Positions 10,535-32,439 of a DNA stretch of 64,000 nucleotides are shown here, piece after piece. The stretch spans positions 69,443 through 133,442 of the forward strand of contig JAFDVI010000001.1 of NCBI GenBank assembly GCA_018269055.1, written 5' to 3'. Position numbers and translations under genes: made by a program. Each line of letters begins with the position of its first letter. The stretch's first letter is position 1. This DNA is from Acidobacteriota bacterium (GTDB taxonomy: Bacteria; Acidobacteriota; Blastocatellia; RBC074). The notes under the pieces are model-generated. The model saw only the letters and a list, made by a program, of their open reading frames with translations. It was not told the origin of the DNA and did no database searches.

Positions 10535-10963
10535 TTAGTAATCGCCGCCGCCGCGACGATCGTAACCACCACGATCTCCGCCGCGTCCGCCTCCACTACG
10601 ACCACCGCCGCGTCCGCCGCCAAATCCGCCGCCACGACCTCCGCCGCGTCCGCCACCGCCGCCAAAGCCGCCACCACGACCACCGCCACCACCAAAACCG
10701 CCGCCGCTGCGGGGTTCGCGCGGACGCGCTTCATTGACGGTCAAGGTGCGACCTTCCAATTCACGACCATTGAAATTCTGAACCGCTGCGTCGGCTGCCT
10801 CCTGTGTGTCCATCTGAACAAATGCAAAGCCGCGCGAACGACCGGTGTCACGATCCGTCACAATGCTGACGTTTTCGACCGTGCCTACCTGGGCAAAAAT
10901 TTCTTCCAAATCCTGCTCCGTCACGTTGAAAGGCAGGTTACCAACGTACAAACGCACTGACAT
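10535..10963 (-). CDS. Glycine-rich RNA-binding protein with a single RRM domain
   Basis: Contains the RNP2 motif LYVGNL and the RNP1 motif RGFAFVQM, then an RGG/GGF repeat tail. An AAGGA RBS precedes the ATG at 10963. The longer ORF to 11056 lacks an RBS. Confidence 0.9.
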   Translation of the reverse strand: MSVRLYVGNLPFNVTEQDLEEIFAQVGTVENVSIVTDRDTGRSRGFAFVQMDTQEAADAAVQNFNGRELEGRTLTVNEARPREPRSGGGFGGGGGRGGGFGGGGGRGGGRGGGFGGGRGGGRSGGGRGGDRGGYDRRGGGDY

Positions 10964-11367
10964 AAATTTTCCTTTGAAGTACTGGGGAAGCAGGCACTGG
11001 CGGACGGAAACGGTCTCCGGAATACGCAATCGTGACTGAGAGAGCAAAAGAACCAACAGACGACGAACTGAGCTGCTTCTAAAATTGCAAACGACCTTCT
11101 CTCTAACTACCGACTGCGCAAACCGAAACTGCTATGGAGACGCATTCACCGTTGATGCTAGCGAGCAGGCAAGGCTGGAAACTTGATCTCAAACCGAACC
11201 AACCGACACGCAACCGACTGCTTCCGTAAAAGCCCTCGATTTTGTGCTGTGAATTGAGATTGGGATATTTCCATCGCGCGCATCTTACCCGGCCAAATGA
11301 ATTTGGCAAATGCTTTTTTTGACCGAATAAAGATCGCACAAAGCTGCCAAATGGCTTTACCATAAGC

Positions 11368-13702: not shown

Positions 13703-13769
13703 TTTTGCGTTGCTTTTCCGCGCCAAGCTGGCTACTTTTAGCTTATGCCATTTCGGGAAAGGAGGCTGT

Positions 13770-14054
13770 ATGACAGAAATCACTTTTGAATCCGTATATG
13801 CCCAGGCTAGTCAGCTAACGCCAAACGAACGCGCGCGGTTAATTGAAGAGTTGGCCCAGGAGTTGATGCCATCGTCCTCTCCTGTACACGAAAAACTTTC
13901 CAACCAAGAACGCCGGGCGCGTATTAGAGCATTTCGAGGCAAGTATCGAGGCAGCGTTTCTAGCGTGGATGAGTTTTTGGCCAACAAACGCCAGGAAGTC
14001 GAACTTGAAGAAGCTCGCTATCTGGCGCGTCATCCCGGAGAGGCTCTGCAATGA
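13770..14054 (+). CDS. vapB: Antitoxin (VapB/Phd-like) of a second VapBC pair
   Basis: 94 aa. A GGAGG RBS lies at 13761-13765. Its stop overlaps the ATG of the PIN gene (ATGA at 14051-14054). Confidence 0.6.
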   Translation: MTEITFESVYAQASQLTPNERARLIEELAQELMPSSSPVHEKLSNQERRARIRAFRGKYRGSVSSVDEFLANKRQEVELEEARYLARHPGEALQ

Positions 14055-14455
14055 TTTACGTGCTGGATTCAAGCGCAATGATCGCCTTAGCCAATGACGA
14101 AACAGGTGCAGATGTTATTGAAAGCCTGCTCGCTGATCCGCAAAACAAATGCTACGCGCATGTGATCAACCTTTGCGAAGTCTTTTATGATGCGATTCGA
14201 CGTAGCAATGAAGCTCAGGCCGTAAATCTCATTAGTGAGCTTCGGAGTCTTGGGGTAATTGAAAACCGCGATTTGGTTACCGCGTTTTGGCAGCAAGCAG
14301 GCAGATTGAAGGCACTGCATCGGCGCGTTTCGCTGGCGGATTGCTTCGCGCTTGCGCTGACGTTGCGACTGGACAGCGAACTCGTCACCTCAGACCATCA
14401 CGAACTGGACGCGCTCGCCGCTGCAGGCGTTTGTCCAATCAAGTTCTTTCGTTAA
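14051..14455 (+). CDS. vapC: PIN-domain toxin, VapC family
   Basis: 134 aa. The N-terminus is MIYVLDSSAMIAL. Conserved acidic residues fit the PIN fold. Confidence 0.75.
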   Translation: MIYVLDSSAMIALANDETGADVIESLLADPQNKCYAHVINLCEVFYDAIRRSNEAQAVNLISELRSLGVIENRDLVTAFWQQAGRLKALHRRVSLADCFALALTLRLDSELVTSDHHELDALAAAGVCPIKFFR

Positions 14456-16138: not shown

Positions 16139-16745
16139 TTACCCTGAGCTACCGTTCTGTCCGTTGCCGTTTTTTCCGGGAAAACGCCGTTTCATCACGA
16201 TAGGTTTCGGCGGGCGGCGGATCGAATTGCCTGCCTCGTAAAGCTCGCTCAGCAAATGCACGCTCAGCGGGAGCGGGAAGTATTCGGATCCGGGGATGCC
16301 TCCCAAACTCATTCGTAAACGTCCTGGGCCAGCAACCCTCATTTCGATCAGTTCCCGCTGATAATCGTTGAAGTCTCTCATTAACTTCCCTATCCGCGTG
16401 ACTTTGTCATTCATCATTTCTTGAACCAGAAGCAGTTGCTCGGCAATGGCGCTTTCATTCGATATGGTTTGAACCAGTTTTGGCGAACAAACACGGAAGC
16501 CGCTATAAAACAGCATTGCCCGAATGCCTCTGGCTTCTTGAATCAGATTCTTGGCGCCGACCAGTAAATTCTCAATTTTATCAATTGTGTTCAACAGATA
16601 GTTCAGTCCCTCCAGGAAAATTGCCCTCTCCTCGGAGGCAAAGAATCTGGTTCGACCGGAATACCGAAGCGCTTCCATCAAGTCTTCGCACTCGCCTCTT
16701 GCGTCCTGCAGTTCCATTTCCAGTTGTGTAATCATTGTTGCACCT
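16139..16745 (-). CDS. Hypothetical protein. It is the last gene of the multi-REC operon and its 5' region carries direct repeats.
   Basis: An AAGGAGGTG RBS sits 6 nt upstream of the ATG at 16745 (MITQLEMELQ...). I recognise no known domain. The protein is predicted helical. Confidence 0.5.
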
Positions 16746-16820: not shown

Positions 16821-16888
16821 TCTGACAGGAGGCTGAAGTTTCTTGCGTTCGGACTTACGCTGGTCTGACGGGAGACTGAGCTTTCTTG
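16821..16888. promoter_or_regulatory. Tandem imperfect direct repeat (2 x 25 bp, 43-bp period), a candidate binding site for an OmpR-family regulator
   Basis: R1 is tctgacaggaggctgaagtttcttg (16821-16845) and R2 is tctgacgggagactgagctttcttg (16864-16888), 20 of 25 identical. A third partial cctgaca lies at 16907. The repeats sit between the wHTH-protein stop and the start of gene 16139-16745. Confidence 0.4.
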
Positions 16889-16958
16889 AAAGCGATCTTA
16901 CATAGGCCTGACAAACGGCTAACGTCACCGGTCAATTGCTTATGCCGGGAAATATTTG

Positions 16959-18905
16959 TTACTCCGATTCATCGGCCAGCCAGTAACCGCCGCCCGGTTC
17001 GTTGAGCAACAGGCGCGGATTCTCAGCATCGTCTTCGATCATTTTTCGCAATCGGCTGATAGCCACGTAAAGACGGTTGTTCTGATAGCTGTCATTTTCG
17101 CGGTACTCTTCCTTGAAGACTCGTTCGATGATTTCGCGCGGTGAATACAGTTGCCCGCGCCGTTCGGACAGCAAGCAAAGCAAATCATAGCTTTGCTTGC
17201 CTATGCGTAGGCGTTGACCACGCACCAACACAGCATGTTTTTCCTTATCAATTTCCAGCTTTCCACTGTGCGCTATTCGGTGAAGCGTTGCAGGTTGAGC
17301 GAGTTTGCCGCTGCTGACGGCGGCGGCAAGCAGTATATGAATCATGCGTACCAGTTCGCCTTTCACCAGTGATTCTGGATTGAGGCTCATAAACCGGCGC
17401 ATCGCTTCGAAGAGCATTCCCCAATGGTAGGTCGCCTGTCCCTGAACCAGCATGTTACTGGCCAATTTTCTGACGGTTTGGATGATGCGCGCTACGGGAC
17501 GTAGCGGCGGTTCCAACTCGCCGAAGTTGAAAATAGTGAAATCAGCGACCAAAGATTTTTCGAATTCGTGCAGCCAAATCAGCTTGTCGTTTTCGACCCA
17601 GTCGAATCGGATCATCGCTTCCAAAATTACGAAGTTCCAGAACAGCGGCATGGGGCCGGCACCGGCAAAATCCGTCAGCCAGGCCTTGCCAGTGCTATCG
17701 CTCAAAATACGCTCTCCGGAGGAAATGATTGGAGAATTGATCAGCGCCGGAAATCCGAAATCGCGGCGCATCATCTCCATCGGGTCGGGATATGTAATGG
17801 ACTCGCCGCCGAAGTAAAAGCGGATACTTCCCGGCGTAATTTCAAGTTTCATGTCCAGCAGAGTGGCTTTTTGCGCAAGAGCCTTTAGCCGCAATTCGTA
17901 TGCTTCAGGTGCCAAGCCGGAATAATCAAAGCCGAATCGCGATTGGCACAACGCGCCGAGAGATTCCCACTCATCTGAGAGATATTTTTCGCGAAAGCAA
18001 TAAGCAAGTGTCTCCTGGAAAAGCGTCTCAATTGTTTTGGCAACCGCCCTTTCATTGCCGCTGCGATACAATTCGATTAGCGAAGACACGCCGTCCAGAT
18101 CAGCCCCTATCAGCGTGTAAGCATTCAAGGCAAAATGGGTAACCGCTTGTGCGGATTTCAGTTGTGTTCGATTTAATCCGTCTGTTTTGGCAGAAACTTC
18201 GGAAGCTCGTTTGCTCTCTTCAGCGATCAACGATTCCCTTCCGCACACTACAAACAACGAAGTCTGTGGCTGATGGTCGGTAAAGGTGTGCACAAGCAAC
18301 GCAACTCGCCCGCCGCTCTGCCAATACAAGCGGGCAATTCGAATCAACCGTTCCTGCTGGAAAACCCGCCGAAACAGATATTCCAGTTCTTCTGCCTGGT
18401 TGGCCGCCTGCACGCGTTCCAGGCTGGGGCTGATTAGATCGGCCAAGTGCTGGAACGACGAAAGTCGCGACTGTTCATCGAACCGAATCTCCAGCTTTTC
18501 GTTACTCTGCGCATATTTTTTCAGGGCATTTTCAATTGCGCTGAGCAGCGCCTTCTTTCCTTCCTTCTTGCTGACGAAATCCACCGCAGGCGGCAATCCC
18601 TCCACCACCGGCCCCAGCGCTTTGCGAACCTGGTCGTAATCCGGCCAGCGGGTCATGATAATTTTAGGAATGCGGCGGTACTCCATTTTCTTGGCCAATG
18701 AAATACCGCTGGTGTCGCGACGGTTGTTGTCCTGTCGCAACCGTACATCAGTGATAAGTAGATTCACCCACGAATCAGCCATCACGCGCTCGGCCTCCTC
18801 GGAAGAAGCTGCGCACATCACTTCATAACCTGCTCGCTCCAAAATGTCAGCGCAGGTTTCCAGATAATCCGGATCGTTATCCACGACCAACAATCTCTTT
18901 TTCAT
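16959..18905 (-). CDS. Atypical response regulator: REC (with insertion) - protein-kinase-like/APH-like domain (probable pseudokinase) - OmpR/PhoB-type winged-helix DNA-binding domain
   Basis: The N-terminus is LLVVDNDPDYLE...LITDVRLRQDNNRRDTSGISL. The middle region resembles a kinase C-lobe: ...SSGERILSDSTGKAWLTDFAGAG is DFG-like, with a degenerate HGD catalytic loop. The C-terminal Trans_reg_C motif is YDLLCLLSERRGQLYSPREIIERVFKEEY...LYVAISRLRKMIEDD...GGGYWL. AGGAG RBS. Confidence 0.75.
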   Translation of the reverse strand: MKKRLLVVDNDPDYLETCADILERAGYEVMCAASSEEAERVMADSWVNLLITDVRLRQDNNRRDTSGISLAKKMEYRRIPKIIMTRWPDYDQVRKALGPVVEGLPPAVDFVSKKEGKKALLSAIENALKKYAQSNEKLEIRFDEQSRLSSFQHLADLISPSLERVQAANQAEELEYLFRRVFQQERLIRIARLYWQSGGRVALLVHTFTDHQPQTSLFVVCGRESLIAEESKRASEVSAKTDGLNRTQLKSAQAVTHFALNAYTLIGADLDGVSSLIELYRSGNERAVAKTIETLFQETLAYCFREKYLSDEWESLGALCQSRFGFDYSGLAPEAYELRLKALAQKATLLDMKLEITPGSIRFYFGGESITYPDPMEMMRRDFGFPALINSPIISSGERILSDSTGKAWLTDFAGAGPMPLFWNFVILEAMIRFDWVENDKLIWLHEFEKSLVADFTIFNFGELEPPLRPVARIIQTVRKLASNMLVQGQATYHWGMLFEAMRRFMSLNPESLVKGELVRMIHILLAAAVSSGKLAQPATLHRIAHSGKLEIDKEKHAVLVRGQRLRIGKQSYDLLCLLSERRGQLYSPREIIERVFKEEYRENDSYQNNRLYVAISRLRKMIEDDAENPRLLLNEPGGGYWLADESE

Positions 18906-19749
18906 GGTTTCGCTCCTGATTGGCTGATCGTTTGGCCGGCACAGACGGCTTTACTGGTTTCTGCCCCAACCACAAACCAGTAGCGGCATTGATGACGCGC
19001 TCTCTGCATTGCTCACGCATTCCGCCAACCGGCAGTTCCTCACTAGCGTCAAGCAGAATTTCCAATCCGCGGGTTTCCACCAATTCCTGGTGATACCGAT
19101 CCATGCGCTCGTTGGCGCTGTCGGTTCGCTTGAAGAAAAGCAGTGTTGCAGCTTCCGCCAGCACACCAGCCAAAGCGCTCAACACTGCCACATAAGTTTT
19201 ATCCTTGAGCGCCAGATATGTCCCGACAAAGATAAAAACCGCCCCCAAAACAGCGATGCCCAATCCTATCCGATAATTCCAGCGCGATTGCTGGCGAGCT
19301 TCTTCATAATCCTGATTGAGTTTGAGCACCAGCGTGTTGCTCGATTCACGATACCGGGATTCAAATTCCAAAGTGTTCCGCACTGCCGACAGTATCGCTG
19401 AAAATTCGTCTTTTTTGTCCACACAAGCTGCTGGACGCAGCTTCCCGTCCAATGACTCCTTGTTTGCTTTCCGCAGTGTTTCGTAATTCAGCCACCGAGT
19501 CAGAAGAATTTTGGGAACTTCCGGTGCTACCTTCAAAATGCGAATGCCGCTGATGTCCTGCTTGTTGCTATTGTTTTCCAATCGAACGTCCAGAATCGCC
19601 AGATCAATCCCGCCTTGCTCCAGAATTGCTTTGGCATCGTCTGGATTGGTTGCCGTCCTTACCTCAAAGTGCTTTCTGTCAAAATAATCCCGAAGCGATT
19701 CCAAATAATCGACATCATTGTCGGCCAGTAACAAGGTGTATTGAGCCAT
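18877..19749 (-). CDS. REC domain (with insertion) fused to a 2-TM membrane region and a short C-terminal tail
   Basis: Paralogous to the REC of the previous gene (LLLADNDVDYLE...LAILDVRLENNSNKQDISGIRIL...ILLTRW). Two hydrophobic helices follow (IGLGIAVLGAVFIFVGTYLAL; VAVLSALAGVLAEAATLLFF). AAAGGAG RBS. Its 3' end overlaps the next gene by 29 bp. Confidence 0.75.
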   Translation of the reverse strand: MAQYTLLLADNDVDYLESLRDYFDRKHFEVRTATNPDDAKAILEQGGIDLAILDVRLENNSNKQDISGIRILKVAPEVPKILLTRWLNYETLRKANKESLDGKLRPAACVDKKDEFSAILSAVRNTLEFESRYRESSNTLVLKLNQDYEEARQQSRWNYRIGLGIAVLGAVFIFVGTYLALKDKTYVAVLSALAGVLAEAATLLFFKRTDSANERMDRYHQELVETRGLEILLDASEELPVGGMREQCRERVINAATGLWLGQKPVKPSVPAKRSANQERNHEKEIVGRG

Positions 19750-20148: not shown

Positions 20149-23100
20149 TCAATTTAATCGCGGGAGTTCAATTACTACCCGTGTACCAGTCTTTTCGCCT
20201 TTGGTGCTGGTCCAGGGAATCTGAATGCTACCGCCGTATTTTTTGATTATGGCCTGCGCCTTGAGCAAGCCGCCCCCTAACCCTTCACCGCCGTCTTCCT
20301 TGGAAATGATGCCCTTGAAAAGTTTGTCCAAAACCTTTTTAGGAATGCCCCTCCCCGTATCTTCAAAGGTGATTTCCACCTTTCCGTTCTCTTGGCTGGT
20401 GGTCACAGTGACCTCTTTCCGTTTGGAGTTCGCGACTGCCCGCACTGCATTGTCAATCACAATGTCACAGGCGAACTGAAACCAATCAGGACTGATTCTG
20501 ACTTCCAGCGGGTCGCTTGGTAGCAGGTTAAGTTTGTACTTCGTCCTTTGCTCAGGGTCATTTTCCCTGCGCGTTCTGATTTGCTCAGCCAACAGGTCGT
20601 TGACCGAAACATTTGTCACCCCCTCTTCGTTGGTGACCGGCGGAGTGATCTTGTAGTCCTGAATTTTTTGCGCGAGTTCCCTGATTTTCCTGAGCTTCTT
20701 GTCCTGTTCTCTAGTCAGCTTTTTCCCGTACGGATCGTCGAAGATTTCGCCGACTTCGGCGGCAATCGTAATCGCCTTTCCCTCGATCTCGTGCCTCCAC
20801 ACTCCGCTGACCATATCCATCCAGGAAAGCTCCGTGCTCGCCTGAATCTGCACATTGGCTTCAATCAGGCTTTTGTACTTTCGGGCATTTTGAATGGCGA
20901 TGGCTGCCTGTGTCGCCAGTGACTCCAAATCCCGTTTATCTTCTTCGTCAAAGGCGTTTGGTTCCGGATGTTCCAGGTTGATTACATAAACCACTTCGTC
21001 ATCAATGATGATTGGAACCGCGAGTTCCGCTTTGGTGGCGGGGTAATATGAAAGGTAGTCCGGGTCTTTGGATACGTCCCCGACCAAATACGATCGCTTA
21101 TCGCGAACAACCCGACCAGTAATTCCGATTCGCTTGCCCGGCTCAGGATTAAGCGGGATCGGAGGATTCTCGGGCGGCGAAGTCGGATAATAAGCCTCCG
21201 CTACGGCTTCATTCCCGACGATCCGCCTGATCGCCACAAAAGCTCCTTCTTCATTGGCGAGCTTCCACATCCAGGGAATGATTTTATTGATGACTTCGCG
21301 TTCAACGAGCGTCCTGGTAATTTCCTCGCCTGCTTCGTGCAAGGTCTGCAATGCTGTAACGCGTCTCCGCAATGCTTCATAAAGGCGCGTATTTCGGATG
21401 GCAACAGCGGCTTGGTCGGCAAAGAGTTCGATGTTCCGCTGCTCATTTGGCGTAAAGTTGTGCTGAGAACGGTTATTGACGAATAGGACGCCAACCGATT
21501 CCGTGCCGAGTCGCAGCGGAACAGCCAAACAGGATTTGATTTCTTCCTCTCGGGCAAATCGTTTGTCATGAAACATCGGGTCTGATGAAACGTCATCCGC
21601 TTTCACCGTCTTTCCCAGTTTCATAATTTCGTAAACCAGGGAATTCTCGGGAACTTCATCCCCACTAGCCAACTGCTCATCCCATACGCCAACCATGGTC
21701 CGCGGCTTCCTGAAGCTATTCTTCTCCTGATCGTAAACGAACAACACAATTGGCTCACAACCCGTAGTTTCTTTCGTGCCGTGGACAATTGTATTCAACG
21801 TTGTATCCAGGTCGCCGAGCGTGGTGACTTTCGCCACGACTTTTGCCGTGTCGCGCGTGGCCTTCAACTCTTTCATCTGACGTGCATTGTCGTACGTGCT
21901 CGCCGCTTGATTGACGTAGAGTTGCAAGGACCTGAGTTCCTGGCCGGTAAAATTGTGTGGCTCGGCGTAAGCAACCCAAAGCACTCCATGCCGCCGGCCT
22001 TGAGCAAAGAAGGGCAGGCAGATCGCTGCTCTAACCCCGTGTTCGAGAAGCAGTGGATTGGTTCGCCCCGGTTGGCGTTTCAAGTCAGGGATGGCAATCA
22101 GTTGGCCGCCGCGCATGACTTCGAGCGACACGCCATTTGCTCGAACGGAACGCGTTAAATCAAGCTGGCGTCCGATTTCATCAGGAATGATTCGCAGAGG
22201 GCGATAAGTTATCTCGTCAATCAAGATAATTCCTGCAAACAGAGCCTTCGTTGCTTTGCGCGTCAGTTCGCAGATAATTTGCAGCACCTGATCGGGGTCT
22301 TGCGGCGCGACCAGTTTGTCACTGGCGCGAGTGAGCGCTTCCTGCCTGATTCGCGCTTCCTGAGTTTGCTGAAACAGATTGTGATTCTCAACCGCTACGG
22401 CCGCCGCATTGACGAAAGTCATCAGGGATTTGAGGTCTTCTTCTGTAATGGGCAAGCGTGTGAAGTTATTGTCGGCAACGACCACGCCGAAAACGTGCCC
22501 TCGCACATTAAGCGGGGCCACCACCAGTTGCGGTCCGGGCAAAAATGCTTCCAGCAACCGATCTGGCAGTTTCAGCGCCTGATCACCTTCCAAGATGAGA
22601 CCCTTGCTATGCCTGCCATCAAGGACCTCATTGAATATATCGTCCGCTGAAGGCTTGCGTTCAAACCGCAATTCCTGCACCTTCGCGCCAACCGGCGTGA
22701 GTTCGATCTTTCCCTGCTCAAGCAGCTTTGTGTAATGAAAGAAATCGTCCAGCGTAGGCGCTTGCCAATCTCGCCAAACCGTATCCGCAGAAGCATGGTC
22801 AAATTGACCTATTCCGCATTTACCGACCAATTCCCCGCGTTCGTCCAGAAGAAAGAGGGCGGCGCGATTGAACCCCAATCCGTAACCCGCCGTGACGCCG
22901 GTCAAGGTGACGTGCAGCAAGCGTTCCAACCTCTGCGCAGCGGTCAATCCTTCATCGCCAAGCATTTTTTGAATGTAAAAGCTGACCTGATGGAGCAGGT
23001 TGAGCTGCTTGTTGACCTTTTCCTTTTGCGTCCCAAGCCGTGCGTTCTGCAATGTCAGCGAGGCGCGCCCTGCCAGCCGTTCCAACATCTCCTCATCGGT

Positions 23101-29817: not shown

Positions 29818-32439
29818 ATGTTCGTTCGCAAGTTTCGCGTGGGGCGATGGTTTGTCGCCGCGCTGGCCCTGATGTTGTTTTATGCGTCGCTGATTGTGCT
29901 CTCGTCGGCGCAATCGGCCAAGCCACCTGCGGCAAAATTCAAACCGGCGAATTTTTCCGCCGCCGCGTTTCACGACGACGGCGAGGGGAAGAAAAAAGGC
30001 CCCAGCCGCGAAGATCGCATCCGCGAAGCCTGGGTCTGGCACCAGGCCAATCGGCAACGGTTGATCGAAACCGAAGGCCTGGCCAGTTTGGAAGCGGAGG
30101 TGCCCGCTGAAGACATCAATGACATTTCAGTCATTCAAGCCGACAGCCGCATCGCTACGCCGTCGAATTTCTTTGACCTGACCGGTCGTCAGGTGCAATT
30201 CACACCTTCTGGTTCGGGGTACACGATTTCCTCGACGACCGGAGGGTTTGACGCCAACTTCGGAACGAAGCTCAACCTGACCACATCGCCCGCCGTCAAT
30301 CCCAAAGCAGGAACGGACCCCGGCGATGACGCTTATATCAATCAGGATTTGGGATTCAGCTTCAGTTTTTACGGTTCGTCGTTTACCACGGTGGCGATTT
30401 CCAGCAACGGATTTCTGGCCTTTCGACCGGCGGGGGTAACGCAAACGGATTTTGATTTGGGCGCTTCGGAATCGGGCGAAAGCCTGGCCAAGTTGCAAAC
30501 GGGCATTCCGCGCATTGCGCCGTACTGGCACGACCTGGACGCGGAAGCGAGTGTCACGCAAGGAGCCAACGGCATTTACATTCGCAAAGACAGCGATCGT
30601 GTGGTCATCACCTGGAACAACATACGCGATTTTCCAAACGATCCAACCGTAGACAACGGCATTCACCGATTCCAGGCAACGCTGTTCAGCAACGGGCGAA
30701 TTGTGTTTGCTTACGATCAAGCACAGTTGACCAGTTTGGCGCTGACGGGGATTTCCGGCGGAGGGGTGGCGGCTCCCGTGCCGACGTTGGTGAATTTTGC
30801 CAGCCCGTCGGCGTCGGTGATTACAACGCCAATTGCCGAATTCTTTTCCACCAGCTCCAAACTGGATGTGGTCGCGGCGGCGCAGGCGTTTTACACCGCG
30901 CACCCAAACAACGATGTTTATGATTTCGTGTATGTGCTGACCGATTTTCAGTTCGATCTGGGCGATGCGTTCGCGTTTTATTTGCCGCTGCGCAATGACG
31001 CCGCAGGCATCGGGTTGGAAGTCGGGGTGTCATCTGACGCGCTGACCATTAATAGCCAAAAGATTCAGGGCATTCTGAATCTGAGCAACATTTCGCAGGC
31101 ATATCCGGCTTCGCCCGTGACGCGATTTCTGGGCGCCAACCACGCGCTTTCGATCATGGGGCAGGAACAGGGGCATCGCTGGTTGGCGTTTCCGGGCTAT
31201 CCAGGGGCTGATCCAGCGCTGTTGCTGGGACGCGATAATGCGCACTGGAACTTTTTCCTGAACATCGAATCCAACGTCAGCAGCCCGGCAGCGCCGCGCT
31301 CATCCAGCGCCGAAGGCAGCGTTTGGCGCGATAACGGCAACGGTTCTTTTACAACCATCAACCTGATTGATGGGTATTCACGATTGGATCAATACCTGAT
31401 GGGATTGCGTCCGTCCACGGATGTTCTTGACACGTTTCTGGTCGCCAATCCGTCGGGAACCGTGCGCACGCGCGAATCCAATCCTTTCCCGAACGTGACC
31501 GTTTCCGGCACCCGGCAAACCATCACAATGAGCCAGATTTTGCAGGCCAACGGAAATCGCAACCCGAGTTCGGCAACCGCGCCCAAAACCTTTCGCGCGG
31601 CGGTTGTGTTGTTGACGCAGCAAGGCGCACAGGCTTCGCAGGCGACGCTGGACAAAGTCACGCTCTACCGGCTGGCTTGGGAAAGTTACTTCCGCCAATC
31701 CACCGATGGGCTGGCCAGCATCAATACGGGCCTGGCGGACGCGGCGACGGCGCGAACGATCGTGGCGCTGTCCGCCGCCAGCTTCAAACAGACTTTGGCC
31801 GCCGGAGAAATCTCTGCGCTGTTTGGCGCGGGTTTGAGCGGCAGCACTGCCGTGGCAAATTCGACACCGTTGCCGACGACGCTGGCCGGAACGCAGGTAC
31901 GAATCAACGGAACGCCTGCGGGTTTGTTTTTCGTTTCGTCCGGACAGATCAATTTTCAGGTTCCATTGACGACGACAACGGTGACAGGAACCGCGGTCAA
32001 CTCTTCTACCGCATTGATTGAAATTTACAGCAACGGGCAGTTGATTCGCGCCGGGACGTTCCAAATTGCCCCGGTCGTTCCGGGCATCTTCACCACCAAC
32101 CAGAGCGGCACCGGCGCAGCGGCGGCGCTGGACGCGTTCACCTTCACGCCCGGCCCATTCAATGCCAAACAATCCAATGGCCAGCCCAACATCATCGCGG
32201 TGTTTGGAACAGGCCTTGGAGCCGACGTAACCGATACCAATGGCGATGCGGCTGGTTCGACGGCGGCGACATTGGATGGTGCGAATGTTTCGGTGGGGTA
32301 CGCTGGCCGAGCGCCCGGTTTCATCGGATTGAATCAATTCAACATCACCTTCCCGGCAAATATCACGTCGGGCAATCACACTTTGTTGATTTCGCGTAAC
32401 GGCATCGCCGCCCGCGAAGTGACGATTGCCGTCAAATAA
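29818..32439 (+). CDS. Secreted hypothetical protein with a C-terminal Acidobacteria-type (TIGR03437-like) domain
   Basis: 873 aa with a signal peptide. The C-terminal ~250 aa (QINFQVP...IIAVFGTGLG...GRAPGFIGLNQFNITFP) are paralogous to the C-termini of the genes at 34224 and 53612. Confidence 0.7.
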   Translation: MFVRKFRVGRWFVAALALMLFYASLIVLSSAQSAKPPAAKFKPANFSAAAFHDDGEGKKKGPSREDRIREAWVWHQANRQRLIETEGLASLEAEVPAEDINDISVIQADSRIATPSNFFDLTGRQVQFTPSGSGYTISSTTGGFDANFGTKLNLTTSPAVNPKAGTDPGDDAYINQDLGFSFSFYGSSFTTVAISSNGFLAFRPAGVTQTDFDLGASESGESLAKLQTGIPRIAPYWHDLDAEASVTQGANGIYIRKDSDRVVITWNNIRDFPNDPTVDNGIHRFQATLFSNGRIVFAYDQAQLTSLALTGISGGGVAAPVPTLVNFASPSASVITTPIAEFFSTSSKLDVVAAAQAFYTAHPNNDVYDFVYVLTDFQFDLGDAFAFYLPLRNDAAGIGLEVGVSSDALTINSQKIQGILNLSNISQAYPASPVTRFLGANHALSIMGQEQGHRWLAFPGYPGADPALLLGRDNAHWNFFLNIESNVSSPAAPRSSSAEGSVWRDNGNGSFTTINLIDGYSRLDQYLMGLRPSTDVLDTFLVANPSGTVRTRESNPFPNVTVSGTRQTITMSQILQANGNRNPSSATAPKTFRAAVVLLTQQGAQASQATLDKVTLYRLAWESYFRQSTDGLASINTGLADAATARTIVALSAASFKQTLAAGEISALFGAGLSGSTAVANSTPLPTTLAGTQVRINGTPAGLFFVSSGQINFQVPLTTTTVTGTAVNSSTALIEIYSNGQLIRAGTFQIAPVVPGIFTTNQSGTGAAAALDAFTFTPGPFNAKQSNGQPNIIAVFGTGLGADVTDTNGDAAGSTAATLDGANVSVGYAGRAPGFIGLNQFNITFPANITSGNHTLLISRNGIAAREVTIAVK

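Follow-up and report, generated by a model that had tools for sequence, protein, structure and literature searches.

We describe a response regulator from an Acidobacteriota bacterium (class Blastocatellia) in which a receiver (REC) domain and an OmpR-type winged helix-turn-helix (wHTH) domain are separated by a large domain with the fold of aminoglycoside phosphotransferases (APH) and protein kinases. Its gene lies on the minus strand of a 64,000-nucleotide stretch of contig JAFDVI010000001.1 (GenBank assembly GCA_018269055.1, positions 69,443 to 133,442), hereafter called the window. The receiver and the winged helix retain their signature residues, the motifs of the kinase-like domain are degenerate, and the gene closes a conserved cassette of histidine kinases and receiver proteins. 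In our reading of these sequences and structural models, to which we assign a probability of roughly 60%, the protein would serve an effector system under kinase control as its transcriptional arm, activated by phosphorylation, and its pseudokinase would act as a gate that binds a ligand or a partner.

Domain architecture of the regulator

The gene encodes 648 amino acids from an ATG start. In Pfam, its N-terminus matches Response_reg (residues 6-124, E = 5.1e-11) and its C-terminus matches Trans_reg_C (PF00486, residues 563-642, E = 3.1e-12), the latter with 46.8 bits against a cutoff of 26.2 and over model positions 1-76 of 77. Matches to NCBIfam equivalogs of the OmpR/PhoB type are partial, falling in two separate stretches and far under their cutoffs (68.9 bits against 330 for RpaB), and the middle ~430 residues have no match of their own in Pfam, NCBIfam, PADLOC or the sequences of the PDB. 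A full-length AlphaFold2 model has a predicted local distance difference test score (pLDDT) of 82.9 and a predicted template modelling score (pTM) of 0.72. In this model the junction at which helix alpha5 of the receiver passes into the kinase-like domain is well ordered (pLDDT 87-93), and just two segments drop below a pLDDT of 50, one at residues 99-106 and the other the tether (residues 539-548) that leads to the winged helix.

The regulator resembles the OmpR/PhoB family in that both flanking domains exceed the Pfam thresholds, the Asp, Thr and Lys of the receiver are intact, and histidine kinases adjoin the gene. In the family alignment, the phospho-acceptor Asp53 (nucleotides 18747-18749) is present in 147 of 147 sequences, position 85 (Thr85) is Thr or Ser, and Lys113 is invariant. 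The recognition-helix arginines are likewise intact, as is the GYxL hairpin at the C-terminus, with R618, R620, G640 and Y641 invariant in the close family (a set of 22 sequences). Unlike the two-domain OmpR/PhoB type, which spans ~220-240 amino acids and has a short linker, the protein carries a folded domain of ~407 residues between its two flanks. Its receiver also departs from the canonical one. The first acidic pair is D-N instead of D-D across the family alignment, and two loops are extended in a family-specific manner: beta3-alpha3, with an invariant D64-x-S66-G67, and alpha4-beta5.

A preliminary description of this DNA, made from the letters and the translated open reading frames (ORFs), had proposed a three-part regulator of this kind with a bona fide Trans_reg_C domain at its end. 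The Pfam flanks and the modelled middle confirm that architecture, the C-terminal match stands well over threshold, and the quoted peptides are found in the translation, SSGERIL and WLTDFAGAG at the residues given in Table 1 and both LYVAISRLRKMIEDD and GGGYWL in the C-terminal domain.

Fold and kinship of the middle domain

A separate AlphaFold2 model of residues 132-560, based on 17 of the 22 close homologs, reached a mean pLDDT of 82.7 and a pTM of 0.83. When this model was compared with the PDB using Foldseek, all of the best 50 matches were aminoglycoside phosphotransferases, namely APH(3')-Ia, -IIa, -IIb and -IIIa, APH(9)-Ia and APH(2'')-Ia (E = 2.7e-6 to 8e-4, probability 1.00), with alignments of ~300-380 columns that cover both lobes. 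The TM-scores against APH structures are modest (0.26-0.35 normalised to the query, 0.38-0.54 to the target), which is consistent with a distant relationship plus insertions. The preliminary description had likened the middle of the protein to the C-lobe of an APH or eukaryotic-type protein kinase and had suggested modelling as a check; the domain does come out as APH/protein-kinase-like, although as a full bilobal unit of ~407 residues (132-538) rather than as a C-lobe alone.

By sequence this kinship is much harder to see. Searches of the middle domain against PDB chains, with single sequences or with a profile (phmmer, hmmsearch), returned nothing relevant, and an hhalign comparison of the family profile with APH(3')-IIa (1ND4) gave a probability of 0.6% and no meaningful alignment. 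The regulator itself has no match at E <= 1 to TCAD9 (PF19974, gathering threshold 40 bits). Six of its 22 close relatives match this model just under threshold (best E = 1e-9, 38.5 bits), over model positions ~275-414 of 429, the segment that holds the catalytic loop and the DFG-like motif. Among 75 diverse family representatives, 27 (36%) match TCAD9, with a best E of 1.1e-25, and two match the APH family PF01636. Since distant members of the same family reach E = 1.1e-25, transitivity supports homology between the domain of the regulator and TCAD9; as the direct sequence comparisons with APH fail, kinship to APH is visible at the level of the fold and by transitivity only. Judged from these profile matches and from the model, the middle domain is a divergent member of a TCAD9 family continuum with a kinase-like fold.

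KINtaro lists TCAD9 among the protein-kinase-like families. An 'active kinase domain of the APH superfamily', which may phosphorylate low-molecular-weight substrates, was described in vWA-MoxR-VMAP ternary conflict systems (Kaur et al. 2020, PMC7159879) and is presumably TCAD9; a second source likewise places TCAD9 in conflict systems (PMC10910872). The domain of the regulator shares with TCAD9 the bilobal APH/protein-kinase-like fold predicted by AlphaFold2 and recovered by Foldseek. Unlike the TCAD9 of ternary systems, it stands in a two-component cassette, and unlike the TCAD9 described as an active kinase, its branch is without the beta3 Lys and shows drift in the catalytic loop. With the APH enzymes it has in common, on manual reading of the sequences, the pattern D-F-x-x-A-G-x-x-P-x-x-W-[ND] following the DFG-like Asp; in contrast to them it has extra N-terminal helices and a three-stranded insert, and does not conserve the Lys, the His or the Asn.

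Degenerate motifs point to a pseudokinase

For the analysis of motifs, 171 family sequences were aligned to the family profile and joint motif states were tabulated for 161 of them; residue equivalences with APH enzymes follow the order of strands and helices in the model and a manual reading of motifs, not a computed superposition. In the family the beta3 strand reads L-F-V-V-C-G, and the position at which active kinases have a Lys is Cys in 138 of 161 sequences (Cys221 in the regulator) and Lys in none. The catalytic loop is ~4 residues shorter, with the consensus S-G-[DE]-N-[IV]-L, in which Ser or Thr replaces the catalytic His. Its catalytic acid position, 398, holds Asp in 62 sequences, Glu in 59 and another residue in 50 (n = 171), while position 399, that of the Mg-binding Asn, holds Asn in 89, Thr in 42, Ser in 18 and Arg in 13 (n = 171). 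A close relative (P0005) has Tyr at the acid position. The triad of acid, Asn and Asp is complete in 48 of 161 members and takes the form D-N-D in 21. In the window the loop reads S-S-G-E-R-I-L, so that it lacks both the HxD motif and the Asn, with Arg at the Asn position; the regulator thereby belongs, with its Cys/Glu/Arg/Asp state, to a degenerate minority (9/161).

Other positions are retained far more strictly. The DFG-type Asp, D412, is kept in 152 of 171 sequences; it lies in WLTDFAGAG, which the preliminary description had called DFG-like. An APH-like 'P..FWNF' stretch follows this motif, with P420 in 165 of 171, and then comes Glu429 (nucleotides 17619-17621), found in 170 of 170. Glu449, Arg479, Tyr493 and His523 are near-invariant even among sequences that are ~25-40% identical, and Arg433 is strongly conserved too; in the N-lobe, the conserved basic residues are Arg192 and Arg200 only.

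Lost catalytic residues and a drifting loop, combined with a conserved cleft and C-lobe, are typical of pseudokinases that keep a binding function. Since the beta3 Lys has been replaced by Cys and the catalytic loop is short and drifting, the middle domain is, on its sequence and model, most likely a pseudokinase, and a role as a nucleotide or ligand sensor is plausible. The family-wide counts strengthen the earlier suggestion of a 'pseudokinase or unusual phosphotransferase'. Several points weigh against this reading. The DFG-like Asp is kept and 30% of members have the acid, Asn and Asp together, and catalysis might persist in some clades. The conserved Arg200, where the Gly-loop lies, might stand in for the absent beta3 Lys. 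Moreover, the role of Glu429 and of the conserved arginines might be one of structure alone, resembling the salt bridge between the APE-Glu and an Arg in protein kinases rather than lining a ligand pocket.

On a rival reading, the domain would be an active atypical small-molecule kinase or nucleotidyltransferase, and the regulator an enzyme as well as a transcription factor. Once its receiver is phosphorylated, such a bifunctional protein would modify a partner protein, a metabolite or an antibiotic-like compound. In WNK kinases the beta3 Lys is replaced from elsewhere, a precedent for near-invariant Arg200; an acidic residue occupies the catalytic position in 121 of 171 sequences and the DFG-like Asp is widespread; and TCAD9 was itself introduced as an active kinase with possible low-molecular-weight substrates (PMC7159879). 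We nevertheless regard an active enzyme as unlikely, given the complete absence of the beta3 Lys, the replacement of the catalytic His within a shortened loop, the scarcity of D-N-D triads and, in the Arg of the window protein and the Tyr of P0005, a drift typical of pseudokinases. At the other extreme, the domain might bind nothing and serve as a structural spacer or oligomerisation scaffold that sets the geometry of two winged helices, for example for the direct repeats with 43-nucleotide spacing that adjoin the gene and are kept in the closest related locus (L001, see below). The rigid junction between receiver and kinase-like domain, the flexible tether of the winged helix and the drift of the catalytic positions would all suit such a role. 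It is disfavoured, however, by the strong conservation of polar residues that cluster near what was once the active site and within the C-lobe (D412, E429, R433, E449, R479, Y493 and H523), which is unexpected for a pure spacer at ~25-40% identity, and the repeats have no established link to the regulator; we consider it somewhat less probable still than an active enzyme.

A widespread family

A first, word-indexed search with the middle region suggested a tiny family of 22 proteins of ~650 amino acids, all with REC and Trans_reg_C domains. We rejected this picture as an artefact of sensitivity, as an exhaustive profile search over 1.84 billion cluster representatives found far more: 1218 proteins at E <= 1e-3, 809 at E <= 1e-10 and 383 at E <= 1e-30. 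The resulting family size of more than 1200 counts clusters at 50% identity. Most of the top 150 profile matches are 630-680 amino acids long, with the domain at ~131-565, and in a second indexed search nearly all of 50 proteins had REC and/or Trans_reg_C domains and none had any other. Members named in their source bear generic labels only, such as 'DNA-binding response OmpR family regulator'.

Most occurrences of the family are in Acidobacteriota and Chloroflexota that have not been cultured. Among GTDB species representatives it is found in metagenome-assembled genomes (MAGs) of Acidobacteriota (Blastocatellia), Chloroflexota (Anaerolineae, Caldilineae), Proteobacteria and Entotheonella; a scan of IMG/VR viral contigs turned up no relatives. 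The nearest locus, L001, comes from an Acidobacteria MAG, and its regulator is 76% identical to that of the window. Paralogous copies also occur. In one Anaerolineales MAG two copies lie in tandem (L027, 6825-8576 and 8635-10596), and some MAGs hold two or three cassettes of the kind described below (L003, L016 and L024 in SXND01; L017 and L019 in CAZVCJ01).

The preliminary description knew of no REC-kinase-wHTH architecture among canonical response regulators. We too found no description of a regulator of this kind in the searchable literature, the coverage of which is incomplete. The architecture is not rare, with more than 1200 clusters, and the architecture tables of Pfam and InterPro probably already list REC-TCAD9-Trans_reg_C.

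A conserved cassette of kinases, receivers and exchangeable effectors

The regulator is the last gene of a tightly packed run of minus-strand genes in the window (Table 1). Because neighbouring genes overlap or are separated by 4-29 nucleotides, the cassette can be taken as a single operon. Directly upstream, and overlapping the start of the regulator gene by 29 nucleotides, lies a partner response regulator in which a paralogous receiver is joined to a SLATT-like hairpin of two transmembrane helices (2-TM). It is preceded by a small atypical receiver, a giant histidine kinase and a second kinase with an S1 RNA-binding domain, the gene of which overlaps the next by 4 nucleotides. Neither kinase has predicted transmembrane segments, which makes both of them cytoplasmic sensors.

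The giant kinase is found upstream of the regulator in ~20 loci. It has a HATPase_c domain and no Pfam match to HisKA; a candidate H-box, VWRHEIEG, lies at residue 1517 (20779-20802, minus strand). The small receiver keeps its Asp, Ser/Thr and Lys and is without the Mg-binding acidic pair. It too is conserved in ~20 loci, being fused to the C-terminus of the kinase in L003 and L014 and to a REC-TIR protein in L028. The S1-domain kinase is conserved upstream in L001, L017, L019, L020 and L029/L030. An S1 domain on a histidine kinase is an unusual combination for a sensor and could feed RNA sensing into the pathway.

The order of giant GAF kinase, small receiver, REC-effector and regulator recurs in ~20 of 27 genome loci from three or more phyla, as well as in three metagenomic loci, the genes of which were called independently and annotated with Pfam. 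What changes is the effector. In ~15 loci its slot is filled by 2-TM hairpins, which fall into at least two kinds, and in five by a TIR domain (CAP12/Pycsar-type or TIR_2, E = 1e-26 to 8e-34); it holds a receiver only in one locus and is absent from ~5. REC-effector genes lie, for instance, at 6762-7592 in L003, 6745-7605 in L008, 4918-5808 in L010, 6709-7539 in L013 and 8759-9997 in L028. The receiver of the regulator is 40% identical to that of its 2-TM partner (E = 4e-28), unusual loops included, as against 28% to the kinase's own receiver, a difference that suggests a shared phosphodonor for the two response regulators.

No vWA, MoxR or VMAP gene was found in the cassette, among its scanned neighbours (~2.8-38.5 kb of the window) or in the Pfam-annotated loci L028-L031. 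A scan with PADLOC-DB v2, which covered the cassette proteins other than the giant GAF kinase, gave no match for the regulator, the small receiver or the S1-domain kinase; the REC-2TM protein matched the '4TM effector' model weakly (E = 0.0038). The genes downstream of the regulator were considered as possible conserved targets or effectors. They differ from locus to locus, encoding saccharopine dehydrogenase, enoyl-CoA hydratase, glucanotransferase, DnaJ or coiled-coil proteins, and as they lack conservation we rejected them as members of the system.

In swapping a TIR or a 2-TM effector on a constant regulatory scaffold, the cassette resembles the CBASS, Pycsar, Thoeris and SLATT/TIR effector systems. 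Unlike CBASS, Pycsar and Thoeris, it has effectors fused to receivers and placed beside histidine kinases, not cyclases or nucleotide sensors, it includes a dedicated transcription factor, and it lacks a PADLOC match. No description of REC-TIR or REC-2TM cassettes linked to histidine kinases was found in the searchable literature, again with incomplete coverage.

A model for the cassette and its alternatives

On the reading we prefer, the cytoplasmic GAF/PAS kinase would phosphorylate Asp53 of the regulator and the equivalent Asp of the paralogous REC-effector. The effector arm would act directly, on the membrane in the case of the 2-TM hairpin or on NAD+ in that of the TIR domain, while the regulator, encoded last in the operon and translationally coupled, would form the transcriptional arm and bind its presumed DNA targets through the tethered winged helix. 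Rigidly joined to helix alpha5 of the receiver, the pseudokinase would serve binding, not catalysis, and take up a nucleotide, some other small anionic molecule or a partner protein. By gating or shaping dimerisation and the release of the winged helix, this domain could integrate phosphorylation with a second input. One observation fits this scheme poorly: no Hpt domain was found, even though the small receiver resembles the split receiver of a hybrid kinase, and the route of phosphotransfer is uncertain for this reason.

The cassette could also be an ordinary physiological or developmental two-component pathway, concerned with stress, dormancy or a multicellular habit, with housekeeping targets and no part in immunity or conflict. 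GAF/PAS kinases usually sense metabolic cues; PADLOC models match neither the regulator nor the scanned S1-domain kinase, viral contigs yielded no relatives, and the flanking genes are of housekeeping type and not conserved. We give this explanation slightly less than an even chance. Against it stand the occurrence of TCAD9 in conflict systems, the several paralogous cassettes of some MAGs and the exchange of TIR domains (including the CAP12/Pycsar type) for SLATT-like 2-TM hairpins on a constant scaffold, which characterises abortive-infection and conflict systems (PMC7159879). A bolder and more doubtful extension of the preferred reading is that the cassette represents an undescribed class of abortive-infection or programmed-dormancy system driven by histidine kinases. 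The multi-GAF kinase, sometimes together with the S1 RNA-binding kinase, would sense intracellular danger and two paralogous receivers would be phosphorylated. One would set loose a 2-TM pore or a TIR NADase; the other, that of the regulator, would reprogram transcription with a TCAD9-type pseudokinase as sensor of a nucleotide or second messenger.

Repeats beside the gene and other features of the window

Between the stop codon of the regulator gene and the downstream ORF lie three direct repeats with a spacing of exactly 43 nucleotides. Within the window the motif is unique to this spacer, and the TGTCAG cores and their spacing are kept in the orthologous locus L001. We considered a tandem array and rejected it, as TRF finds none and only the 18-nucleotide cores repeat. 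As the motif is absent upstream of the operon and elsewhere in the window, an autoregulatory site was not identified; as a sequence of a type that would suit an OmpR-type protein, the repeats are a reasonable candidate for an operator of the downstream gene. They remain a lead, being known from two closely related sequences. No consensus for a sigma-70 promoter or an intrinsic terminator was found around the 3' end of the regulator gene.

The ORF directly beyond the repeats (16139-16735, minus strand) encodes a helical, coiled-coil-like protein of 198 amino acids. Its likely true start is the ATG at 16735, preceded by AAAGGAGG, and it has a strong ribosome-binding site; it matches nothing in Pfam or NCBIfam, and its only homolog is in L001. 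In L010 and L011 an unrelated coiled-coil ORF occupies the same position.

The rest of the neighbourhood consists of housekeeping genes plus a gene for a VapC-type PIN protein (14051-14455, plus strand, E = 7e-11). The latter follows a small overlapping ORF (13710-14054), with which it likely forms a toxin-antitoxin pair ~2.5 kb from the cassette. An ORF of 873 amino acids without a Pfam match at E <= 1e-3 (29818-32439, plus strand) is divergent from the gene for a peptidase S15 at the head of the minus-strand block. At 10535-11056 (minus strand), an RRM_1 RNA recognition motif of eukaryotic type is clearly present in a bacterial protein (E = 1.3e-26).

Table 1. Regulator, cassette and adjoining repeats, in positions of the window
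Feature	Positions	Strand	Basis
Response regulator: REC, kinase-like (TCAD9-type) predicted pseudokinase, OmpR winged helix	16959-18905	-	ORF list, Pfam, AlphaFold2
REC domain, residues 1-131	18513-18905	-	Pfam Response_reg
APH/TCAD9-type kinase-like domain, residues 132-538, bilobal, predicted non-catalytic	17292-18512	-	AlphaFold2, Foldseek, Pfam on relatives
beta3 strand 'VVCG', residues 219-222, with Cys221-Gly222 in place of the ATP-anchoring Lys	18240-18251	-	secondary structure of the model
Shortened, degenerate catalytic loop 'SSGERIL', residues 395-401	17703-17723	-	translation
DFG-like motif 'WLTDFAGAG', residues 409-417	17655-17681	-	translation, family conservation
Flexible tether from kinase-like domain to winged helix, residues 539-548	17262-17291	-	pLDDT <50
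OmpR/PhoB-type winged helix-turn-helix, residues 549-648 plus stop	16959-17261	-	Pfam Trans_reg_C
Partner response regulator: paralogous REC and SLATT-like 2-TM hairpin (CyanoTRADDas_TM, PF20712, E = 3.9e-15)	18877-19749	-	Pfam, two hydrophobic helices
Small atypical receiver, 123 amino acids	19762-20133	-	partial Pfam Response_reg, alignment of 20 orthologs
Giant cytoplasmic sensor histidine kinase: REC, seven GAF, PAS, HATPase, 1733 amino acids	20149-25350	-	Pfam
Second kinase: S1 RNA-binding domain, REC, GAF, HATPase, 841 amino acids	25347-27872	-	Pfam
Three 18-nucleotide direct repeats, sense-strand core YTGTCAG	16822-16839, 16865-16882, 16908-16925	.	repeat search

Implications

Response regulators are well catalogued, and the OmpR type is seen as a compact two-domain switch. 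The family described here departs from that picture; it is real, widespread and uncharacterised, and the cassette around it, which lay beyond the view of the preliminary description, adds to its interest. If the pseudokinase binds a ligand, phosphorylation and ligand would be combined as an AND-gate within a single regulator. Were the abortive-infection reading true, a bacterial response regulator would here contain a pseudokinase that gates it allosterically in response to a ligand. The pairing of REC-TIR or REC-2TM proteins with a giant cytoplasmic kinase suggests, furthermore, that a phosphorelay may directly control effectors of the immunity type, and such phosphorelay-controlled effectors are a subject on which the TIR/SLATT and two-component fields have so far been unconnected.

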